Source: Patescibacteria group bacterium (GTDB lineage Bacteria > Patescibacteriota > Patescibacteriia > Patescibacteriales > JBAZCA01). Taken from it: 64,000 nt of DNA. The stretch covers positions 369,576-433,575 of the forward strand of contig JBAZUF010000001.1 in assembly GCA_041661505.1 (NCBI GenBank). The letters run 5' to 3'. Below, one piece after another: positions 15,535-48,160 of the stretch. Made by a program: the position numbers and the translations under genes. The first letter of the stretch is position 1; each line of letters begins with the position of its first letter. A model generated the notes under the pieces. It did no database searches. It had not been told where the DNA came from and saw nothing but the letters and a program-made list of their open reading frames with translations.

Positions 15535-15564
15535 AAAACAAAAAACAGCCCCTTTTGGGGGCTG
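15535..15564 (-). terminator. Terminator closing the Fic-smpB-ssrA-HNH-tRNA unit
   Basis: cagcccc-ttttg-ggggctg with an A-run on the plus side, which is a T-run on the minus strand. Confidence 0.7.
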
Positions 15565-15576
15565 CTTTTTTCTTTG

Positions 15577-15648
15577 AGCGGGTAGGGGGAGTCGGACCCC
15601 CATCTCTACCTTGGCAAGGTAGCATAATAGCCGCTATACGATACCCGC
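15577..15648 (-). tRNA. tRNA-Gly (anticodon GCC), CCA not encoded
   Basis: Reverse complement gcgggtatcgtatagcggctattatgctaccTTGCCAAggtagagatgggggtccgactccccctacccgct. Confidence 0.9.
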
Positions 15649-15716
15649 GTAAGTCCGCTTCCAAGTAAATTCTTACGTGCAAGCTTCGTAAGAATCCACT
15701 AAGAGGCGAACACTTG

Positions 15717-15798
15717 TGGTCCAGGTGGGAGTCGAACCCACATGCCTTGCGGCACAGCATTTTAAGTGCTGCGTGTATACCAATTCCACCACTGGACC
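15717..15798 (-). tRNA. tRNA-Leu (anticodon UAA), CCA not encoded
   Basis: Reverse complement ggtccagtggtggaattggtatacacgcagcaCTTAAAAtgctgtgccgcaaggcatgtgggttcgactcccacctggacca, with a long variable arm. Confidence 0.9.
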
Positions 15799-16286
15799 TA
15801 ATTACCATTTCTCATTCTGTTTCTGCCTCGATGAGTCGGTTTTAAACTATGGCAATTAGGACAAAGAATTCTTAAGTTTACTAATCTATTATCCCGGCTA
15901 TTTCCATTGATGTGATCAAGCTCTAAAGGTATGCGCCCGTCAGCAGATTTTTTAGCCCAGCCGCATTCTTCGCATTTTGGATGTTTTATTCCTTCTTTAA
16001 AAAGGCGTTTTTTTAGCTTGAAACTTTGAAAATAACTATTTTTAACCAAAACCTTATTTAAAGCTATTCTTGGTTTTCCTATTCCTATTAATCCTCTGCT
16101 CCATCCTTTTCCCTTTAAATGACTGTCATCAATCTTCAAGTTTTTTATGAACTTTTTTACTTGCGTATAATTTCCTCCAGCCATGCGCAAATTTAATTTC
16201 TTCAGCACTTGTCTTATGCTTAAGGACGTTTTTACTGCTTGGCGAAGTTCTTTTTCTGTCCAGCTTCTTGGTCTCATATCTCCCAT
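15798..16286 (-). CDS. HNH endonuclease (homing-endonuclease-like)
   Basis: CEECGW...LELDHINGNSRDNRLVNLRILCPNCHS is an HNH beta-beta-alpha-metal motif with two CxxC pairs. The TAG stop occupies 15800-15798, so its G is nucleotide 1 of tRNA-Leu. The start is ATG 16286 or 16277 (the track uses TTG 16313). Confidence 0.8.
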   Translation of the reverse strand: MGDMRPRSWTEKELRQAVKTSLSIRQVLKKLNLRMAGGNYTQVKKFIKNLKIDDSHLKGKGWSRGLIGIGKPRIALNKVLVKNSYFQSFKLKKRLFKEGIKHPKCEECGWAKKSADGRIPLELDHINGNSRDNRLVNLRILCPNCHSLKPTHRGRNRMRNGN

Positions 16287-16355
16287 TATAACAAAAAGTA
16301 AAGGCTTAGACAAACGTCTGCTATTGCCTTTACCCTTTAGACTAGAATGGAAAAA

Positions 16356-16744
16356 TGGTGGAGATGGCGGGAATCGAACCCGCGTCTAATAATCTACTGT
16401 CTAGCACATTTACGGAAATATTCCGGTTTGTTGTTTAACCGCTATCCTAAAAACCAGACAAAACAAATAGCGGCTAGCCTATTAAGTCTTAATCCGCTGC
16501 CAAAGGCGGGCCGCGGATGCATCCTGATGTTATAACACCCGCTACCGGATATCAGAAATCACCGGGCGAATGGTTGCGGCTTAGTTAAGCTACAACAGGA
16601 GCGAAGGCTGGAACAGCGAAAACGCCGTTGCTAACCTTGCTGGCAAATGATTTTGCACTTATGTTTTTCCGGGTGTTTGGCAGGCTCCCGGAACGCCTGC
16701 ACCGAATACTAGAAGGATGATTATTATCGAATCCGATCATCCCC
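16356..16744 (-). ncRNA. ssrA: tmRNA (ssrA)
   Basis: The minus strand starts GGGGATGATCGGATTCGA and ends ...GGTTCGATTCCCGCCATCTCCACCA, a tRNA-Ala-like acceptor with a G3:U pair. smpB lies 4 nt upstream. A candidate tag frame is gca aaa tca ... gta gct taa (16656-16585), giving AKSFASKVSNGVFAVPAFAPVVA. Confidence 0.85.
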
Positions 16745-16748
16745 TATT

Positions 16749-17216
16749 TTATTTATTTCTTGTCAAAGTTCTAATCTTCCGGTCCAGCTCTCTTTTCTTA
16801 ATTACTTCGCGCTTGTCATGCTTTTTTCTTCCCTTGGCCAGCGCGAATTCAAGCTTTATTAGACCACGTACAGTATATATTTTCAAGGGCACTAATGTCA
16901 AGCCTTGTTCTTGCTTTTTGCCCATTAAATGCTTAATTTCGCTCTTCTTTATCAAAAGCTTTCGCGAGCGCAAAGGGTCGTGCGGCAACTTCTGGTTAGA
17001 GAATTTATATAAAGGAATATGGGCGTTTATCAGGTAGGCTTCAGGCAGTTTTCCCGGTTTGGATGACAGCTTGAAAGTAACATACGAGCCTTTCAGGCTG
17101 ACGTGCCCGGTCTTAATCGATTTTACTTCATGGCCATACAAAACCAGACCGGCTTCAATTTTTTCCAGTAATTCATAATCAAAAAACGCTTTTTTGTTCT
17201 CGGCTAAAGCTTTCAT
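16749..17216 (-). CDS. smpB: SsrA-binding protein SmpB
   Basis: KKAFFDYELLEKIEAGLVLYGHEVKSIK...; 155 aa; adjacent to the tmRNA. Confidence 0.9.
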   Translation of the reverse strand: MKALAENKKAFFDYELLEKIEAGLVLYGHEVKSIKTGHVSLKGSYVTFKLSSKPGKLPEAYLINAHIPLYKFSNQKLPHDPLRSRKLLIKKSEIKHLMGKKQEQGLTLVPLKIYTVRGLIKLEFALAKGRKKHDKREVIKKRELDRKIRTLTRNK

Positions 17217-17845
17217 GTTTTTCTATTCTGATCCAAATTTCTTAAAGCCTCCTTTAAAGCCGAGTAAATGAGCTTTTCTAACTTTTTATTGTTTCCCTGG
17301 TCAGCCGCCCCGAGAGCTTCAACATATTTTTTTCTTCCGCTCCTTGTCTCAACCTCTAATTCAGCAGGCGGCAAGTCAAGGTTCAATAAAATCATATTAA
17401 TTAGAAGCCGGCCGATTCTTCCGTTGTAATCGTTAAAAGGATGAATCCATAAAAATTGATGATGCGCCCAAGCCAATAAGCCAACCAGTTCTTCAAAAAA
17501 ACTTTCATCATCAATTAAAGGAATATGCTTCATCCGGATATTTAAATCATTAGTAAAATTCAGCATCAGTTGCGGTAAGAGATAAAATTTCGGGGGTTCA
17601 TAATTTGAAACTCTAACATCTAAAGACCTGTACCGGCCAGCGGTTTTTGGAAAGATCCATCCAAAACCAGCCTTGTGTGTTTTTAAAATAAAGCCGGGAG
17701 TAATAGGAATTTTTCCGCGCTTCCGGCTGGCTAATACAAAATCCCACGCTCTTTTAATCCCTTCTATTTCTAATGGAATTAGTTTTGAGCGTGGGATAAT
17801 TCCGAATGAAGTATCTTTGTAGCTGGTTTCGCCTTGCCTTCGCAT
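17213..17845 (-). CDS. Fic/Fido-domain protein with a deviant active-site motif
   Basis: HPFNDYNGRIGR compared with the canonical HxFx(D/E)GNGRxxR shows Tyr replacing the first Gly. It overlaps the smpB start by 4 nt (ATGA). Confidence 0.8.
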   Translation of the reverse strand: MRRQGETSYKDTSFGIIPRSKLIPLEIEGIKRAWDFVLASRKRGKIPITPGFILKTHKAGFGWIFPKTAGRYRSLDVRVSNYEPPKFYLLPQLMLNFTNDLNIRMKHIPLIDDESFFEELVGLLAWAHHQFLWIHPFNDYNGRIGRLLINMILLNLDLPPAELEVETRSGRKKYVEALGAADQGNNKKLEKLIYSALKEALRNLDQNRKT

Positions 17846-39424: not shown

Positions 39425-39497
39425 GGGTGAGATACGGGGATCGAACCCGTAACGCTAGCGCCACAAGCTAGTGTGATACCACTTCACCAATCTCACC
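39425..39497 (-). tRNA. tRNA-His (anticodon GUG) with an extra 5' G that can pair with C73
   Basis: Reverse complement ggtgagattggtgaagtggtatcacactagcTTGTGGCgctagcgttacgggttcgatccccgtatctcaccc. Confidence 0.85.
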
Positions 39498-39500
39498 ATT

Positions 39501-39971
39501 TTACAATTTTTCTTTATGGTTATGTACTAAATGATGACAGTTTCTGCATAACCATACAAGATTTTGTATCGTATTATTTTTTCTATTACTGTCAATATGG
39601 TGGGCTTCTAAAACCCGTTTATCTTCTGTTCCGCATCTCTTGCATATCAACCGTACTTTACTTTTTATTAATAGACTCCTATAAATAAACGTGCCACCCT
39701 GCCATAGCGGATGATTTTCGCCGGAGTAATATACATTTCTCCATTTAGTTTGACAAGATTTGGAACAAAAAAACTTACCGCTTTTCGATCCGTTAAGATG
39801 CCTGGGCATTCTCCAAACTTCTTTTCCGCAAATTCCACAAATTACATATTTCCCCTTCCTGACTCCTAATGAACTGCATTTCCTGGAGCAGTATTTCCCC
39901 CATCCTAACTTTTGATGATTAGGCTTTGAGTAAAATTCTTTGTCGCAAATTTTACATTTAACTATTGGCAT
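39501..39971 (-). CDS. HNH endonuclease with N-terminal zinc-ribbon repeats
   Basis: Repeated CxxC...CxxC ribbons are followed by CKRCG...LEAHHIDSNRKNNTIQNLVWLCRNCHHLVH. The TAA stop lies 3 nt before the tRNA-His 5' end. Confidence 0.8.
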   Translation of the reverse strand: MPIVKCKICDKEFYSKPNHQKLGWGKYCSRKCSSLGVRKGKYVICGICGKEVWRMPRHLNGSKSGKFFCSKSCQTKWRNVYYSGENHPLWQGGTFIYRSLLIKSKVRLICKRCGTEDKRVLEAHHIDSNRKNNTIQNLVWLCRNCHHLVHNHKEKL

Positions 39972-40089
39972 AATTAAATTATACCAAGCAGTAATAATAA
40001 TGTAAAATGAACGAATTGTGGTCTGCTTCTATCAACTACCATCAAAATCAGAATATCAACCTCCTTATTACTTAAAACCAATCAGCGCC

Positions 40090-40164
40090 TGGTACGCCCA
40101 GTTGGAATCGGACCAACATATCCAGCTTAGAAGGCTGGTGTTCTATCCATTGAACTATGGGCGC
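40090..40164 (-). tRNA. tRNA-Arg (anticodon UCU), CCA encoded
   Basis: Reverse complement gcgcccatagttcaatggatagaacaccagcCTTCTAAgctggatatgttggtccgattccaactgggcgtacca. Confidence 0.9.
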
Positions 40165-43106: not shown

Positions 43107-43336
43107 ACAAAAACCCGCCTTTCGAGCGGGTAAATAAATTCAACTGTTGTAAAGCCAAAGCTTGAACTAAAAAATAAACAAAGGCCTGAATTTATTTTCC
43201 TCTTTGCTCGAAGAGAAAATATTTATTTTAGGCCTTGGTGTTCTGGCTTTCCTTGTTCTTCGCCTAAATAGCGCGGAACAAAAATTACAGTTGCGGCACA
43301 GCGCCCGATTTTCACGGGACTTTCCCAAAGCTATGC
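43107..43336 (-). promoter_or_regulatory. Cobalamin (B12) riboswitch-like leader with two terminator-type hairpins
   Basis: The minus-strand RNA reads UUGGGAAAGUCCCGUGAAAAUCGGGCGCUGUGCCGCAACUGUAA (43326-43285), then the hairpin UUGUUC...GAACAA, then GGAAAGCCAGAACACCAAGGCC (B12-box-like, 43249-43231). CCGCAACUGUAA fits the CCGCnACUGUnA core exactly, judged against my memory of the Rfam RF00174 consensus. Hairpin plus U-run combinations occur at 43169-43236 and 43107-43131, and the second ends 1 nt before the ATG. Confidence 0.65.
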
Positions 43337-43340
43337 ACTA

Positions 43341-43369
43341 ATTATATCTGATTAAAAGTGGCCAGTCAA
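43341..43369 (-). promoter_or_regulatory. Sigma70-like promoter TTGACT-17-TATAAT driving the riboswitch leader
   Basis: The minus strand reads ttgactggccacttttaatcagatataat. Confidence 0.65.
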
Positions 43370-47322: not shown

Positions 47323-47502
47323 GCTTCTGCCTCCGCCATTAATTGACTAACAGCACTTTCTTTGTTAATATATTTTTGACCCGTAAAGGGATATTTTTAT
47401 TTTTCAGAGGACATTAACCATAGCTTAAAATCATTAAGCTGGAGTTAAGTAAAGAAAAGTACTGGAAATCAGGATGTGGCAAAGAAAAAATAAAAACTAC
47501 CT

Positions 47503-47558
47503 GGAGTGGTAGCTCAGTTGGTTGCCTGCCTGCCGGCAGGCAGGGAGCGCTGCCCTGT
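47503..47558 (+). pseudogene. Displaced tRNA-Asp 5' fragment (nt 1-35) interrupted by the 20-nt palindrome CCTGCCTGCCGGCAGGCAGG
   Basis: ggagtggtagctcagttggtt G [palindrome 47525-47544] gagcgctgccctgt. Homology to the tRNA ends after anticodon position 35. Confidence 0.8.
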
Positions 47559-47559
47559 T

Positions 47560-47874
47560 ATGTTCTATATTTATGCTCTGTTATTTGAATCAGGCAGAAT
47601 ATACGTCGGTATGACGTCTGATTTAGAAACCCGAATAAAAGATCATAAACGTGGAAAGACAAAATCCACAAAAAACAGAGGAAATTTCCAAGTCGCAATT
47701 CTTGGGGAAGCAGAAAACCGGACAAACGCACGCCAAAAAGAAAAGTACTGGAAATCAGGATGTGGCAAAGAAAAAATAAAAACTACCTGGAGTGGTAGCT
47801 CAGTTGGTTACCTGCCTGCCGGCAGGCAGGGAGCGCTGCCCTGTTATGTTCTATATTTATGCTCTGTTATTTGA
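47560..47874 (+). CDS. GIY-YIG nuclease-family protein (YhbQ-like), copy 1, with read-through extension because the stop is disrupted
   Basis: MFYIYALLFESGRIYVGMTSDLETRIKDHKRGKTKSTKNRG... has the GIY...YVG motif. The palindrome destroys the TAG used by copy 2, so the frame continues for 21 codons. Confidence 0.65.
   Translation: MFYIYALLFESGRIYVGMTSDLETRIKDHKRGKTKSTKNRGNFQVAILGEAENRTNARQKEKYWKSGCGKEKIKTTWSGSSVGYLPAGRQGALPCYVLYLCSVI
47789..47844 (+). pseudogene. Second displaced tRNA-Asp 5' fragment with the same 20-nt palindrome (47811-47830)
   Basis: ggttA[cctgcctgccggcaggcagg]GAGCGC is an exact insertion relative to ggttAGAGCGC of the intact tRNA. Confidence 0.8.
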
Positions 47875-48097
47875 ATCAGGCAGAATATACGTCGGTATGA
47901 CGTCTGATTTAGAAACCCGAATAAAAGATCATAAACGTGGAAAGACAAAATCCACAAAAAACAGAGGAAATTTCCAAGTCGCAATTCTTGGGGAAGCAGA
48001 AAACCGGACAAACGCACGCCAAAAAGAAAAGTACTGGAAATCAGGATGTGGCAAAGAAAAAATAAAAACTACCTGGAGTGGTAGCTCAGTTGGTTAG
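47846..48097 (+). CDS. GIY-YIG nuclease-family protein (YhbQ-like), copy 2; the last 8 codons lie inside tRNA-Asp
   Basis: 83 aa. The ORF ends ...KTTWSGSSVG-TAG, where tgg agt ggt agc tca gtt ggt tag covers tRNA nucleotides 1-23. Confidence 0.75.
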   Translation: MFYIYALLFESGRIYVGMTSDLETRIKDHKRGKTKSTKNRGNFQVAILGEAENRTNARQKEKYWKSGCGKEKIKTTWSGSSVG

Positions 48098-48148
48098 AGC
48101 GCTGCCCTGTCACGGCAGAGGTCGCGGGTTCGAGCCCCGTCCGCTCCG
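48075..48148 (+). tRNA. tRNA-Asp (anticodon GUC), CCA not encoded
   Basis: ggagtggtagctcagttggttagagcgctgccCTGTCACggcagaggtcgcgggttcgagccccgtccgctccg. Confidence 0.9.
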
Positions 48149-48160
48149 CAATAACTTTAA

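Follow-up and report, generated by a model that had tools for sequence, protein, structure and literature searches.

A probable free-standing HNH homing-endonuclease gene dedicated to tRNA-Leu(UAA) in Patescibacteria

In a 64,000-nt stretch of DNA from a Patescibacteria group bacterium (GCA_041661505.1, JBAZUF010000001.1, positions 369,576-433,575, forward; this whole stretch is called the window below), a gene for a small protein with an HNH nuclease domain, designated HNH-A, lies between the gene for transfer-messenger RNA (tmRNA; ssrA) and a pair of tRNA genes. The locus comprises the following features.

16749..17216, minus strand: smpB (Pfam SmpB, E=2.8e-48), the 5'-most gene of the native smpB-ssrA-tRNA-Leu-tRNA-Gly arrangement.
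16356..16744, minus strand: tmRNA gene (ssrA) with encoded tag AKSFASKVSNGVFAVPAFAPVVA (ARAGORN; Rfam RF00023, 131.7 bits), left neighbour of the insertion.
16292..16339, minus strand: inverted repeat (hairpin; from the sequence and an RNA fold), left end of the inserted element.
16285..16313, minus strand: promoter-like element (promoter scan, 10/12 with TG).
15798..16277, minus strand: HNH-A homing-endonuclease gene, 159 aa, stop TAG at 15800-15798 (Pfam HNH, HNH_3).
15716..15798, minus strand: tRNA-Leu(UAA) (ARAGORN; Rfam, 61.1 bits; the two predictions place the end at 15716/15717).
15576..15648, minus strand: tRNA-Gly(GCC), co-transcribed downstream (ARAGORN; Rfam).
15540..15570, minus strand: intrinsic-terminator-like hairpin with a T-run (terminator scan, 13-pair stem), closing the unit.

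The stop codon of HNH-A (T15800 A15799 G15798) shares its last base with the tRNA, G15798 being nucleotide 1 of tRNA-Leu(UAA) in the sequence and in the ARAGORN and Rfam predictions, and ARAGORN, Rfam and the terminator scan agree in placing HNH-A between ssrA and tRNA-Leu/tRNA-Gly, all on one strand and followed by a terminator-like hairpin. Both features had been read from the bare letters in an original prediction for this DNA. The open reading frame (ORF) assumed there began at TTG 16313; alignment with homologues (M-R-x-R-S-W) favours ATG 16277 instead, so that the protein is likely to be 159 aa long. Judged by its sequence, the inserted element would occupy ~560 bp of the ssrA-tRNA-Leu spacer and consist of the inverted repeat, the promoter and an ORF running up to or into the tRNA.

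Both Pfam matches of HNH-A (HNH, E=1.6e-5; HNH_3, E=6.1e-6) lie above their cut-offs, and residues C105, C108, H125, N137, C142, C145 and H146 are invariant in 25 aligned sequences. The C-terminal domain reads as a Cys4 HNH domain in which the beta-beta-alpha-metal catalytic motif, with its zinc-binding cysteines, is present. The AlphaFold model (predicted local distance difference test, pLDDT, 83) consists of an N-terminal three-helix module (helices 11-19, 24-30 and 37-49 at pLDDT ~88-96), a disordered linker (residues 61-72 at pLDDT <50) and the HNH domain; residues ~10-50 form a predicted DNA-binding module joined to the nuclease by this flexible linker. Solved structures align to the HNH core alone, and a fold search returned no solved homologue of the N-domain, its weak Myb- or helix-turn-helix (HTH)-like matches having E>1.

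A large protein collection holds 6548 homologues of HNH-A, nearly all of ~156 aa, and those with a named source are from Patescibacteria. The phage HNH endonuclease family phrog_10822 matches over the full length (E=1.5e-42), the PADLOC 'HEase' (homing endonuclease) model matches with E=2.4e-20, and F-TflIV (hegA) of phage T5 is 46% identical over residues 72-156, the catalytic half. Several other identities were considered and set aside. An anti-phage HNH protein of the Zorya type (ZorE) is not indicated, as the NCBIfam ZorE model scores 21.9 bits against a cut-off of 600 and the PADLOC ZorE model covers the HNH core alone. For a defence system or McrA-like restriction enzyme there are likewise HNH-core matches only and no partner genes, the neighbours being smpB, ssrA and tRNAs. 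A nuclease encoded in a group I intron is contradicted by the lack of any Rfam group I match in the window, by the continuity of tRNA-Leu and by the position of the ORF upstream of nucleotide 1. Finally, an integrase-mediated element that targets tRNA genes does not fit, since no integrase adjoins HNH-A in the gene and ORF lists and the insertion is on the 5' side; any duplicated tRNA piece at HNH-A loci is the 5' part, not the 3' end that is typical of attachment-site (att) duplication.

The position of the gene was surveyed in full-length homologues with readable flanks (n=116, genome and metagenomic loci). The tRNA-Leu(UAA) gene adjoins the HNH-A homologue on the same strand in 80/80 genome loci from different species and, when metagenomic loci are added, in 116/116. 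Between stop codon and tRNA start the gap is -102 to +108 nt, most often +4; the stop codon is inside the tRNA in 51 copies (44%) and upstream of it in 65, where it is 0-108 nt away and in all but one case no more than 26 nt. The one-base overlap of the window recurs in locus L015, and in six loci (L019, L044, L045, L051, L068 and one metagenome locus) the gap is -36, the ORF terminating on the TAA anticodon of tRNA-Leu. The gene found upstream of HNH-A is tRNA-Cys in 62 cases, tmRNA in 4 and tRNA-Gly in 2, with none within 400 nt in 48. Because this upstream neighbour varies, the partner of HNH-A is tRNA-Leu and not ssrA; the adjacency of ssrA in the window is coincidental, a matter of synteny, since most members of the family follow tRNA-Cys. 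Three divergent or rearranged HNH-A-like genes (L188 3388-3849, L231 2315-2779 and L262 171-590; 64%, 47% and 36% identity, respectively) sit ~60-70 nt 3' of tRNA-Leu genes rather than 5', those of L231 and L262 directly after tRNA-Leu(UAA) and that of L188 after an adjacent tRNA-Leu(AAG) in a dense tRNA array.

Crowding of genes in a streamlined genome might by itself bring a nuclease ORF up against a tRNA gene: Patescibacteria are gene-dense, and ordinary genes such as rbfA also end near tRNA-Cys. However, linkage of 116/116 members to one specific tRNA refutes this explanation, three more homologues lie directly 3' of the same tRNA, and a rough chance estimate for three such nuclease/tRNA junctions within the window is ~2e-8, so that the probability left to coincidence is negligible. 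The adjacency of nucleases to tRNA 5' ends, seen in the window for 3 of 6 tRNAs, thus far exceeds chance both there and in the whole-family survey.

The relatives of HNH-A in phages show a similar preference. At least one tRNA gene lies in the ~3-kb flanks of 73 of the 80 IMG/VR relatives (identity 35-52%), and tRNA-Leu makes up 60% of the flanking tRNAs as against 25% of all tRNAs (64 distinct phage loci). The HNH ORF overlaps tRNA-Leu by 10 nt in Salmonella phage Arash and ends 6 nt before it in a T4-like phage. The phrog_10822 and IMG/VR relatives therefore resemble HNH-A in full-length architecture, in lying in tRNA-rich regions with tRNA-Leu as the commonest flank and in ORF ends that often overlap the tRNA; unlike HNH-A, they stand 5' or 3' of tRNA-Leu, beside various Leu isoacceptors, and many phage loci have the layout of L188, L231 and L262, with the gene downstream of tRNA-Leu. 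In phage T5, F-TflIV, as well as F-TflI and F-TflII, are free-standing HNH genes among tRNA genes, as is HNH-A, and the catalytic half of F-TflIV is homologous; hegA, however, encodes 227 aa with a different N-terminal part in a phage genome, whereas HNH-A is a chromosomal gene for 159 aa that keeps to one tRNA species throughout a bacterial phylum and has a promoter of the leaderless type and an inverted repeat that mimics a tRNA (below). The GIY-YIG enzyme SegB of phage T4 is another free-standing nuclease in a tRNA operon, with the same stop/tRNA geometry, but it has a different catalytic fold, lacks a promoter of its own and recognizes a conserved tRNA-gene motif, T-psi-C, that is common to many tRNAs, in contrast to the tie of HNH-A to a single one; homing by SegB has been demonstrated by experiment (PMC2330249), whereas homing by HNH-A is proposed from sequence.

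Metagenomes were scanned for the Patescibacteria-type tRNA-Leu(UAA) 5' half, yielding 109 informative (comparable) loci, of which 41 (~38%) are occupied by HNH-A and 68 are empty. Where the gene is missing, tRNA-Leu comes 3-70 nt after tRNA-Cys or tmRNA. Two of these empty loci have tmRNA upstream, at a spacing of 13 nt (L223) or 40 nt (L181), and L234 agrees with them in the tmRNA 3' end and almost entirely in tRNA-Leu, yet carries a 541-nt insert that contains repeat, promoter and ORF; similarly, tRNA-Cys is near-identical between the empty L226 and the occupied L078 and L019. A check of tRNA loci in relatives, advised with the original prediction, thus finds the same ssrA-tRNA-Leu or tRNA-Cys-tRNA-Leu synteny without a nuclease gene (L223, L181, L226). 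Decayed copies occur at the same site: L183 and L251 retain the C-terminal third alone, L275 is frameshifted and L177 has an internal deletion. Presence and absence together with decay are what a homing-endonuclease gene is expected to show as it invades, degenerates and disappears again.

This polymorphism and the remnants argue against an indispensable host gene. The proposal that HNH-A is a domesticated host gene, whose conserved product would serve the cell (in the maintenance of tRNA or DNA, say), be expressed along with tRNA-Leu(UAA) and be inherited vertically without mobility, can draw on the strictly conserved position, on the intactness of most copies with their high and uniform amino-acid conservation, and on the gene's own conserved promoter. 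It is nevertheless improbable, as 62% of comparable tRNA-Leu(UAA) loci lack the gene, close relatives of equal synteny among them, and truncated and frameshifted copies stand at the very same site; moreover, beyond the phylum its nearest relatives are homing endonucleases from the tRNA clusters of phages, and unrelated superfamilies (HNH-B, GIY-YIG and LAGLIDADG, below) take the same position at other tRNAs. The occupied and empty alleles also bear on joint acquisition of nuclease and tRNA-Leu from a phage tRNA cluster, with the tRNA itself being foreign, an origin suggested by the phage homologues beside tRNA-Leu genes. Against it, tRNA-Leu is near-identical in occupied and empty relatives and the native tmRNA-Leu-Gly or Cys-Leu synteny is kept, the gene calls and ORF lists examined around the locus contain no other phage genes, and identity to phage proteins is at most 52%, compared with ~66% inside the bacterial family; such an origin is therefore very unlikely.

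An extended -10 element (TGtTATAAT, 16293-16285) ends 7 nt before ATG 16277, and a -35 element (TTGTCT, 16313-16308) lies inside the hairpin loop. Of 105 HNH-A loci, 91 have a TANNNT box 4-10 nt upstream of the ATG, most often at 6-7 nt, as compared with 12.6% at random positions, and this spacing is the geometry of a leaderless mRNA read from a predicted promoter. The original suggestion that the nucleases ride on tRNA transcription does not hold in that simple form, given the -10 box before the ATG in these 91 loci and likewise upstream of HNH-B. Upstream of, or overlapping, the promoter is an inverted repeat whose family form, (AA)TGGTA(G/T)AC(GC)-~20 nt-(GC)GT(C/A)TACCA(TT), mimics the D-arm (D-loop and D-stem) of tRNA-Leu; its loop is fixed at 19-21 nt, its arms covary, and its 3' arm stops either right at the ATG or 15-17 nt short of it. 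The repeat of the window (5' arm GGGTAAAGGC, 16335-16326; loop 20 nt; 3' arm GCCTTTAC, 16305-16298) folds as RNA with -17.3 kcal/mol (z=-4.2), and its arms GTAAAGGC/GCCTTTAC carry two paired substitutions relative to the consensus arms. The tRNA-like match upstream of HNH-A has p=4e-18, and in several loci a longer part of tRNA-Leu (nt ~2/8-27) is copied, in a sequence that follows that of the resident tRNA. The D-loop of the occupied tRNA-Leu is mostly GGTATAC, which other Leu isoacceptors use as well, and the upstream repeat often has the canonical GGTAGAC. Mismatches between repeat arms show no clear strand bias or asymmetry (G-T ~38 vs A-C ~29). A test of arms within a locus against shuffled arms gave z=12.7, a value that is too high, since complementarity was the basis on which the arms had been chosen.

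The phage nuclease I-TevI represses its own synthesis by binding an operator that resembles its homing site. As with I-TevI and the ribosome-binding-site-sequestering hairpins of T4 homing-endonuclease genes, a palindrome and a promoter overlap just upstream of the HNH-A ORF; the arms of the HNH-A repeat differ in copying the D-arm of the target tRNA, and the repeat may act as DNA or as RNA. Control of T4 homing-endonuclease genes by hairpin and promoter, the hairpins acting on read-through transcripts, has been described (PMC2330249).

With at most a few nt between ORF end and tRNA there is no room for a terminator, so the tRNA must be released by processing from the 3' part of the transcript that encodes the nuclease. 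In the window the stop codon overlaps the RNase P site of the predicted co-transcribed tRNA (TAG/G15798), and cleavage at G15798 would leave an mRNA that ends in ...UA, with no stop codon, an expectation that is structurally sound on the sequence. The original prediction took this as a possible built-in limiter of expression. In its strong form, the overlap would be selected, RNase P would generate non-stop mRNA, and tmRNA would tag most of the nuclease for destruction. Besides the geometry of the window, this design could appeal to the stops inside the tRNA in 51/116 copies, six of them with the geometry of the tRNA's own TAA anticodon, and to precedents in phages: in T4, maturation of tRNA-Arg cuts segB between its last sense codon and its stop, for which stop removal was proposed, and for the T5 F-Tfl genes lower expression through processing of the primary transcript was proposed (PMC2330249). 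The idea of stop removal is thus not new, having been put forward for T4 segB/tRNA-Arg (PMC2330249). Selection for limitation is nonetheless doubtful as an account of the overlap. In 65/116 copies the stop is kept upstream of the tRNA, which argues that stop loss is tolerated rather than selected; stops inside the tRNA cluster at -13, -18, -36 and -47, offsets that look like translation ending at the first in-frame stop met and not at a selected site; ssrA is next door by coincidence; and a leaderless mRNA can be translated to the end before it is processed. The overlap is best read as a tolerated by-product of tight insertion that may also lower expression.

Two further units in the window associate a nuclease with a tRNA.

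39425..40164, minus strand: second unit, with tRNA-Arg(UCU) at 40164-40090, the HNH-B ORF at 39971-39501 and tRNA-His at 39497-39425 (ARAGORN, Pfam HNH).
47451..48149, plus strand: third unit, with 2.25 perfect tandem copies of a 286-bp unit followed by an intact tRNA-Asp at 48075-48149 (from the sequence).

The HNH-B stop codon (39503-39501) lies 3 nt before G-1 of tRNA-His at 39497, as first reported, and an extended -10 (TGgTATAAT, 39986-39978) is separated from the ORF by 6 nt. Homologues of HNH-B number 467. Four proteins were looked up, and for 4/4 the gene stands between tRNA-Arg and tRNA-His in every one of the 8 loci with enough flanking sequence (a count that leaves out L294, which ends at a contig edge); the ORFs end 6-17 nt ahead of tRNA-His, and their ATG is preceded at 6 nt by a -10 box. 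A motif, TTATCCACAGCAC, is conserved upstream of HNH-B (window 39972-40089; L284, L288, L291, L293); it includes the antisense of the tRNA-His anticodon loop and is followed by a TTGAC -35 box, and in L288 it pairs, as a short hairpin, with a partial tRNA-His 5' half that is kept there in the sense orientation.

In the third unit, each 286-bp repeat (copies 47451-48097) is made up of tRNA-Asp nt 1-21, a variable base, a 20-nt palindrome CCTGCCTGCCGGCAGGCAGG, tRNA-Asp sequence to position 35 and a GIY-YIG ORF (ATGs at 47560 and 47846; Pfam GIY-YIG, E=1.6e-13). The final ORF stops at 48097 and so reaches 23 nt into the tRNA-Asp that starts at 48075, in agreement with the original prediction, and the C-termini of the family are translated tRNA sequence, e.g. 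WSGSSVG and GVEQSGSSSGS. Relatives of this ORF overlap an intact tRNA-Met, with an upstream tRNA-Met copy split at 35/36 by CCTGCCTGCCGGCAGGCAGG (L295, L298, L300); the partial tRNA-Asp copy of the window is likewise broken at anticodon position 35/36, which matches the site of group I introns in Patescibacteria tRNA-Asp and tRNA-Asn genes (PMC13011429). Nucleases of such introns resemble HNH-A in having single-copy tRNA targets in the same phylum, and there are HNH homing-endonuclease genes among them (PMC13011429), but HNH-A has no intron or ribozyme by Rfam, its ORF is outside the tRNA, and splicing is not needed. The pairs HNH-B/tRNA-His and GIY-YIG/tRNA-Asp share the family-wide tRNA linkage seen for HNH-A. 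Profiles built from the three nucleases detected no further HNH or GIY-YIG ORF in the window, LAGLIDADG-type ORFs not being covered by this screen.

Elsewhere, LAGLIDADG-type ORFs adjoin tRNA-Leu(GAG), tRNA-Leu(UAG) and tRNA-Cys, and ORFs of the HTH or LAGLIDADG_3 type end -36 to +11 nt from tRNA-Gly(GCC), tRNA-Lys(CUU), tRNA-Pro(UGG), tRNA-Leu(GAG/UAG) and tRNA-Cys (L181, L042, L032, L208/L283, L165, L244, L019, L061, L169, L261). In L181 the tRNA-Leu site is empty and the tRNA-Gly(GCC) site is occupied, the ORF lying between tRNA-Leu(UAA) and tRNA-Gly(GCC). ORFs adjacent to tRNA-Cys were dismissed as a further nuclease association, most of them looking like ordinary rbfA (by C-terminal motifs, not profile-checked), with a minority being GIY-YIG or LAGLIDADG.

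Three side observations concern the spacers and the surroundings of these units. A four-helix-bundle ORF of the 23S rRNA intervening-sequence protein type occurs in tRNA spacers, between tmRNA and tRNA-Leu(UAA) in L195 (7795-8217; judged by eye from its translation) and between tRNA-Met and tRNA-Asp in L296 (1824-2180; PF05635 in the gene call), with a remnant in L173 (1126-1271). A Fic/DOC family gene (17216-17845, minus strand) lies directly upstream of smpB and overlaps it, and has the same position in L001 and L002. The window also contains a predicted AdoCbl (cobalamin) riboswitch at 43189-43353 on the minus strand, which only just passes the Rfam gathering score (51.7 against 50 bits).

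The reading that best accounts for these data, with a probability of roughly 0.78, is that HNH-A encodes an HNH homing endonuclease and is a free-standing gene, dedicated to tRNA-Leu(UAA) and inserted in a native ssrA-tRNA-Leu-tRNA-Gly operon. It draws on direct observations, namely the linkage to tRNA-Leu(UAA), the occupied/empty polymorphism, the decay, the phage relatives and the conserved promoter and repeat; the phage relatives in particular, T5 F-TflIV included, lie in tRNA clusters and preferentially by tRNA-Leu, which argues for a free-standing homing-endonuclease gene. Mechanistically, the N-terminal helical module would recognize a conserved D-arm sequence inside the tRNA-Leu gene, and the HNH domain would cut nearby in alleles that lack the element. 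Repair would then copy the element in, with the tRNA gene itself serving as homology and the upstream partial tRNA copy as left homology, after which the element's promoter would drive nuclease and tRNA together. The stop that touches the tRNA would be a by-product of tight insertion, and RNase P processing, by removing or crowding the stop, could lower nuclease levels via non-stop decay and tmRNA, as proposed for segB. Of the interpretation that accompanied the original prediction, the tie of homing-type nucleases to tRNA 5' ends therefore stands and extends to whole families, whereas simple riding on tRNA promoters does not.

Several points weigh against this homing interpretation. Most HNH-A copies are intact, their pairwise identity is uniform (66 +/- 3.7%) with a star-like distribution, and there are no near-identical copies across distant lineages, so that recent horizontal spread is not apparent; vertical descent with repeated loss would likewise produce empty sites. 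The occupied allele retains an intact tRNA-Leu gene, which leaves self-immunity unexplained, and a resistant allele defined by G or T in the D-loop is not the answer, as occupancy in the 109 metagenomic loci is equal for T (30/81) and G (11/28). The upstream repeat could be a target-mimicking DNA operator, an RNA hairpin on read-through transcripts, a left homology arm or a repair relic. Limitation by non-stop decay, for its part, cannot be general with 65/116 stops upstream of the tRNA. As to inheritance, HNH-A identity correlates only weakly with tRNA-Leu identity (rho 0.14), and copies labelled Elusimicrobia and Omnitrophica nest among those of Patescibacteria (69-77% identity) with no recent transfer visible.

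Free-standing nucleases in the tRNA clusters of phages T4 and T5 are already known, as is the stop-removal idea. The literature searched, limited in coverage, yielded no description of an HNH/tRNA-Leu(UAA) pairing in Patescibacteria, and within it the phylum-wide chromosomal occurrence, the pairing of one family with one tRNA, the leaderless promoter that drives nuclease and tRNA, and the tRNA-mimicking repeats across unrelated families all appear undescribed. The pairings comprise HNH-A with tRNA-Leu(UAA), HNH-B with tRNA-His, GIY-YIG with tRNA-Asp and tRNA-Met, and LAGLIDADG with other tRNAs. Taken jointly, and only as a tentative proposal, they may represent undescribed intron-less homing cassettes for tRNA genes on Patescibacteria chromosomes, from at least three nuclease superfamilies, each with a partial decoy tRNA copy and palindromic partner (left homology arm and/or operator), a leaderless promoter of its own and an ORF end fused to the tRNA 5' end, such that tRNA maturation and trans-translation would cap the dosage. 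If so, a cassette promoter that has taken over an essential single-copy tRNA would make clean loss costly.

For annotation, an ORF that extends into a tRNA gene in these genomes is a real gene and not an artefact. More broadly, the homing lifestyle of phage tRNA clusters would be widespread on the chromosomes of a phylum with tiny genomes and single-copy tRNA genes, and the fact that repeats mimicking a tRNA precede the genes of three unrelated nuclease families hints at a common solution to targeting or self-control. With its probably selfish nuclease gene fused to the precursor of an essential tRNA, the locus lends itself to studying how the dose of a potentially toxic enzyme is set by tRNA processing, leaderless translation and ribosome rescue.

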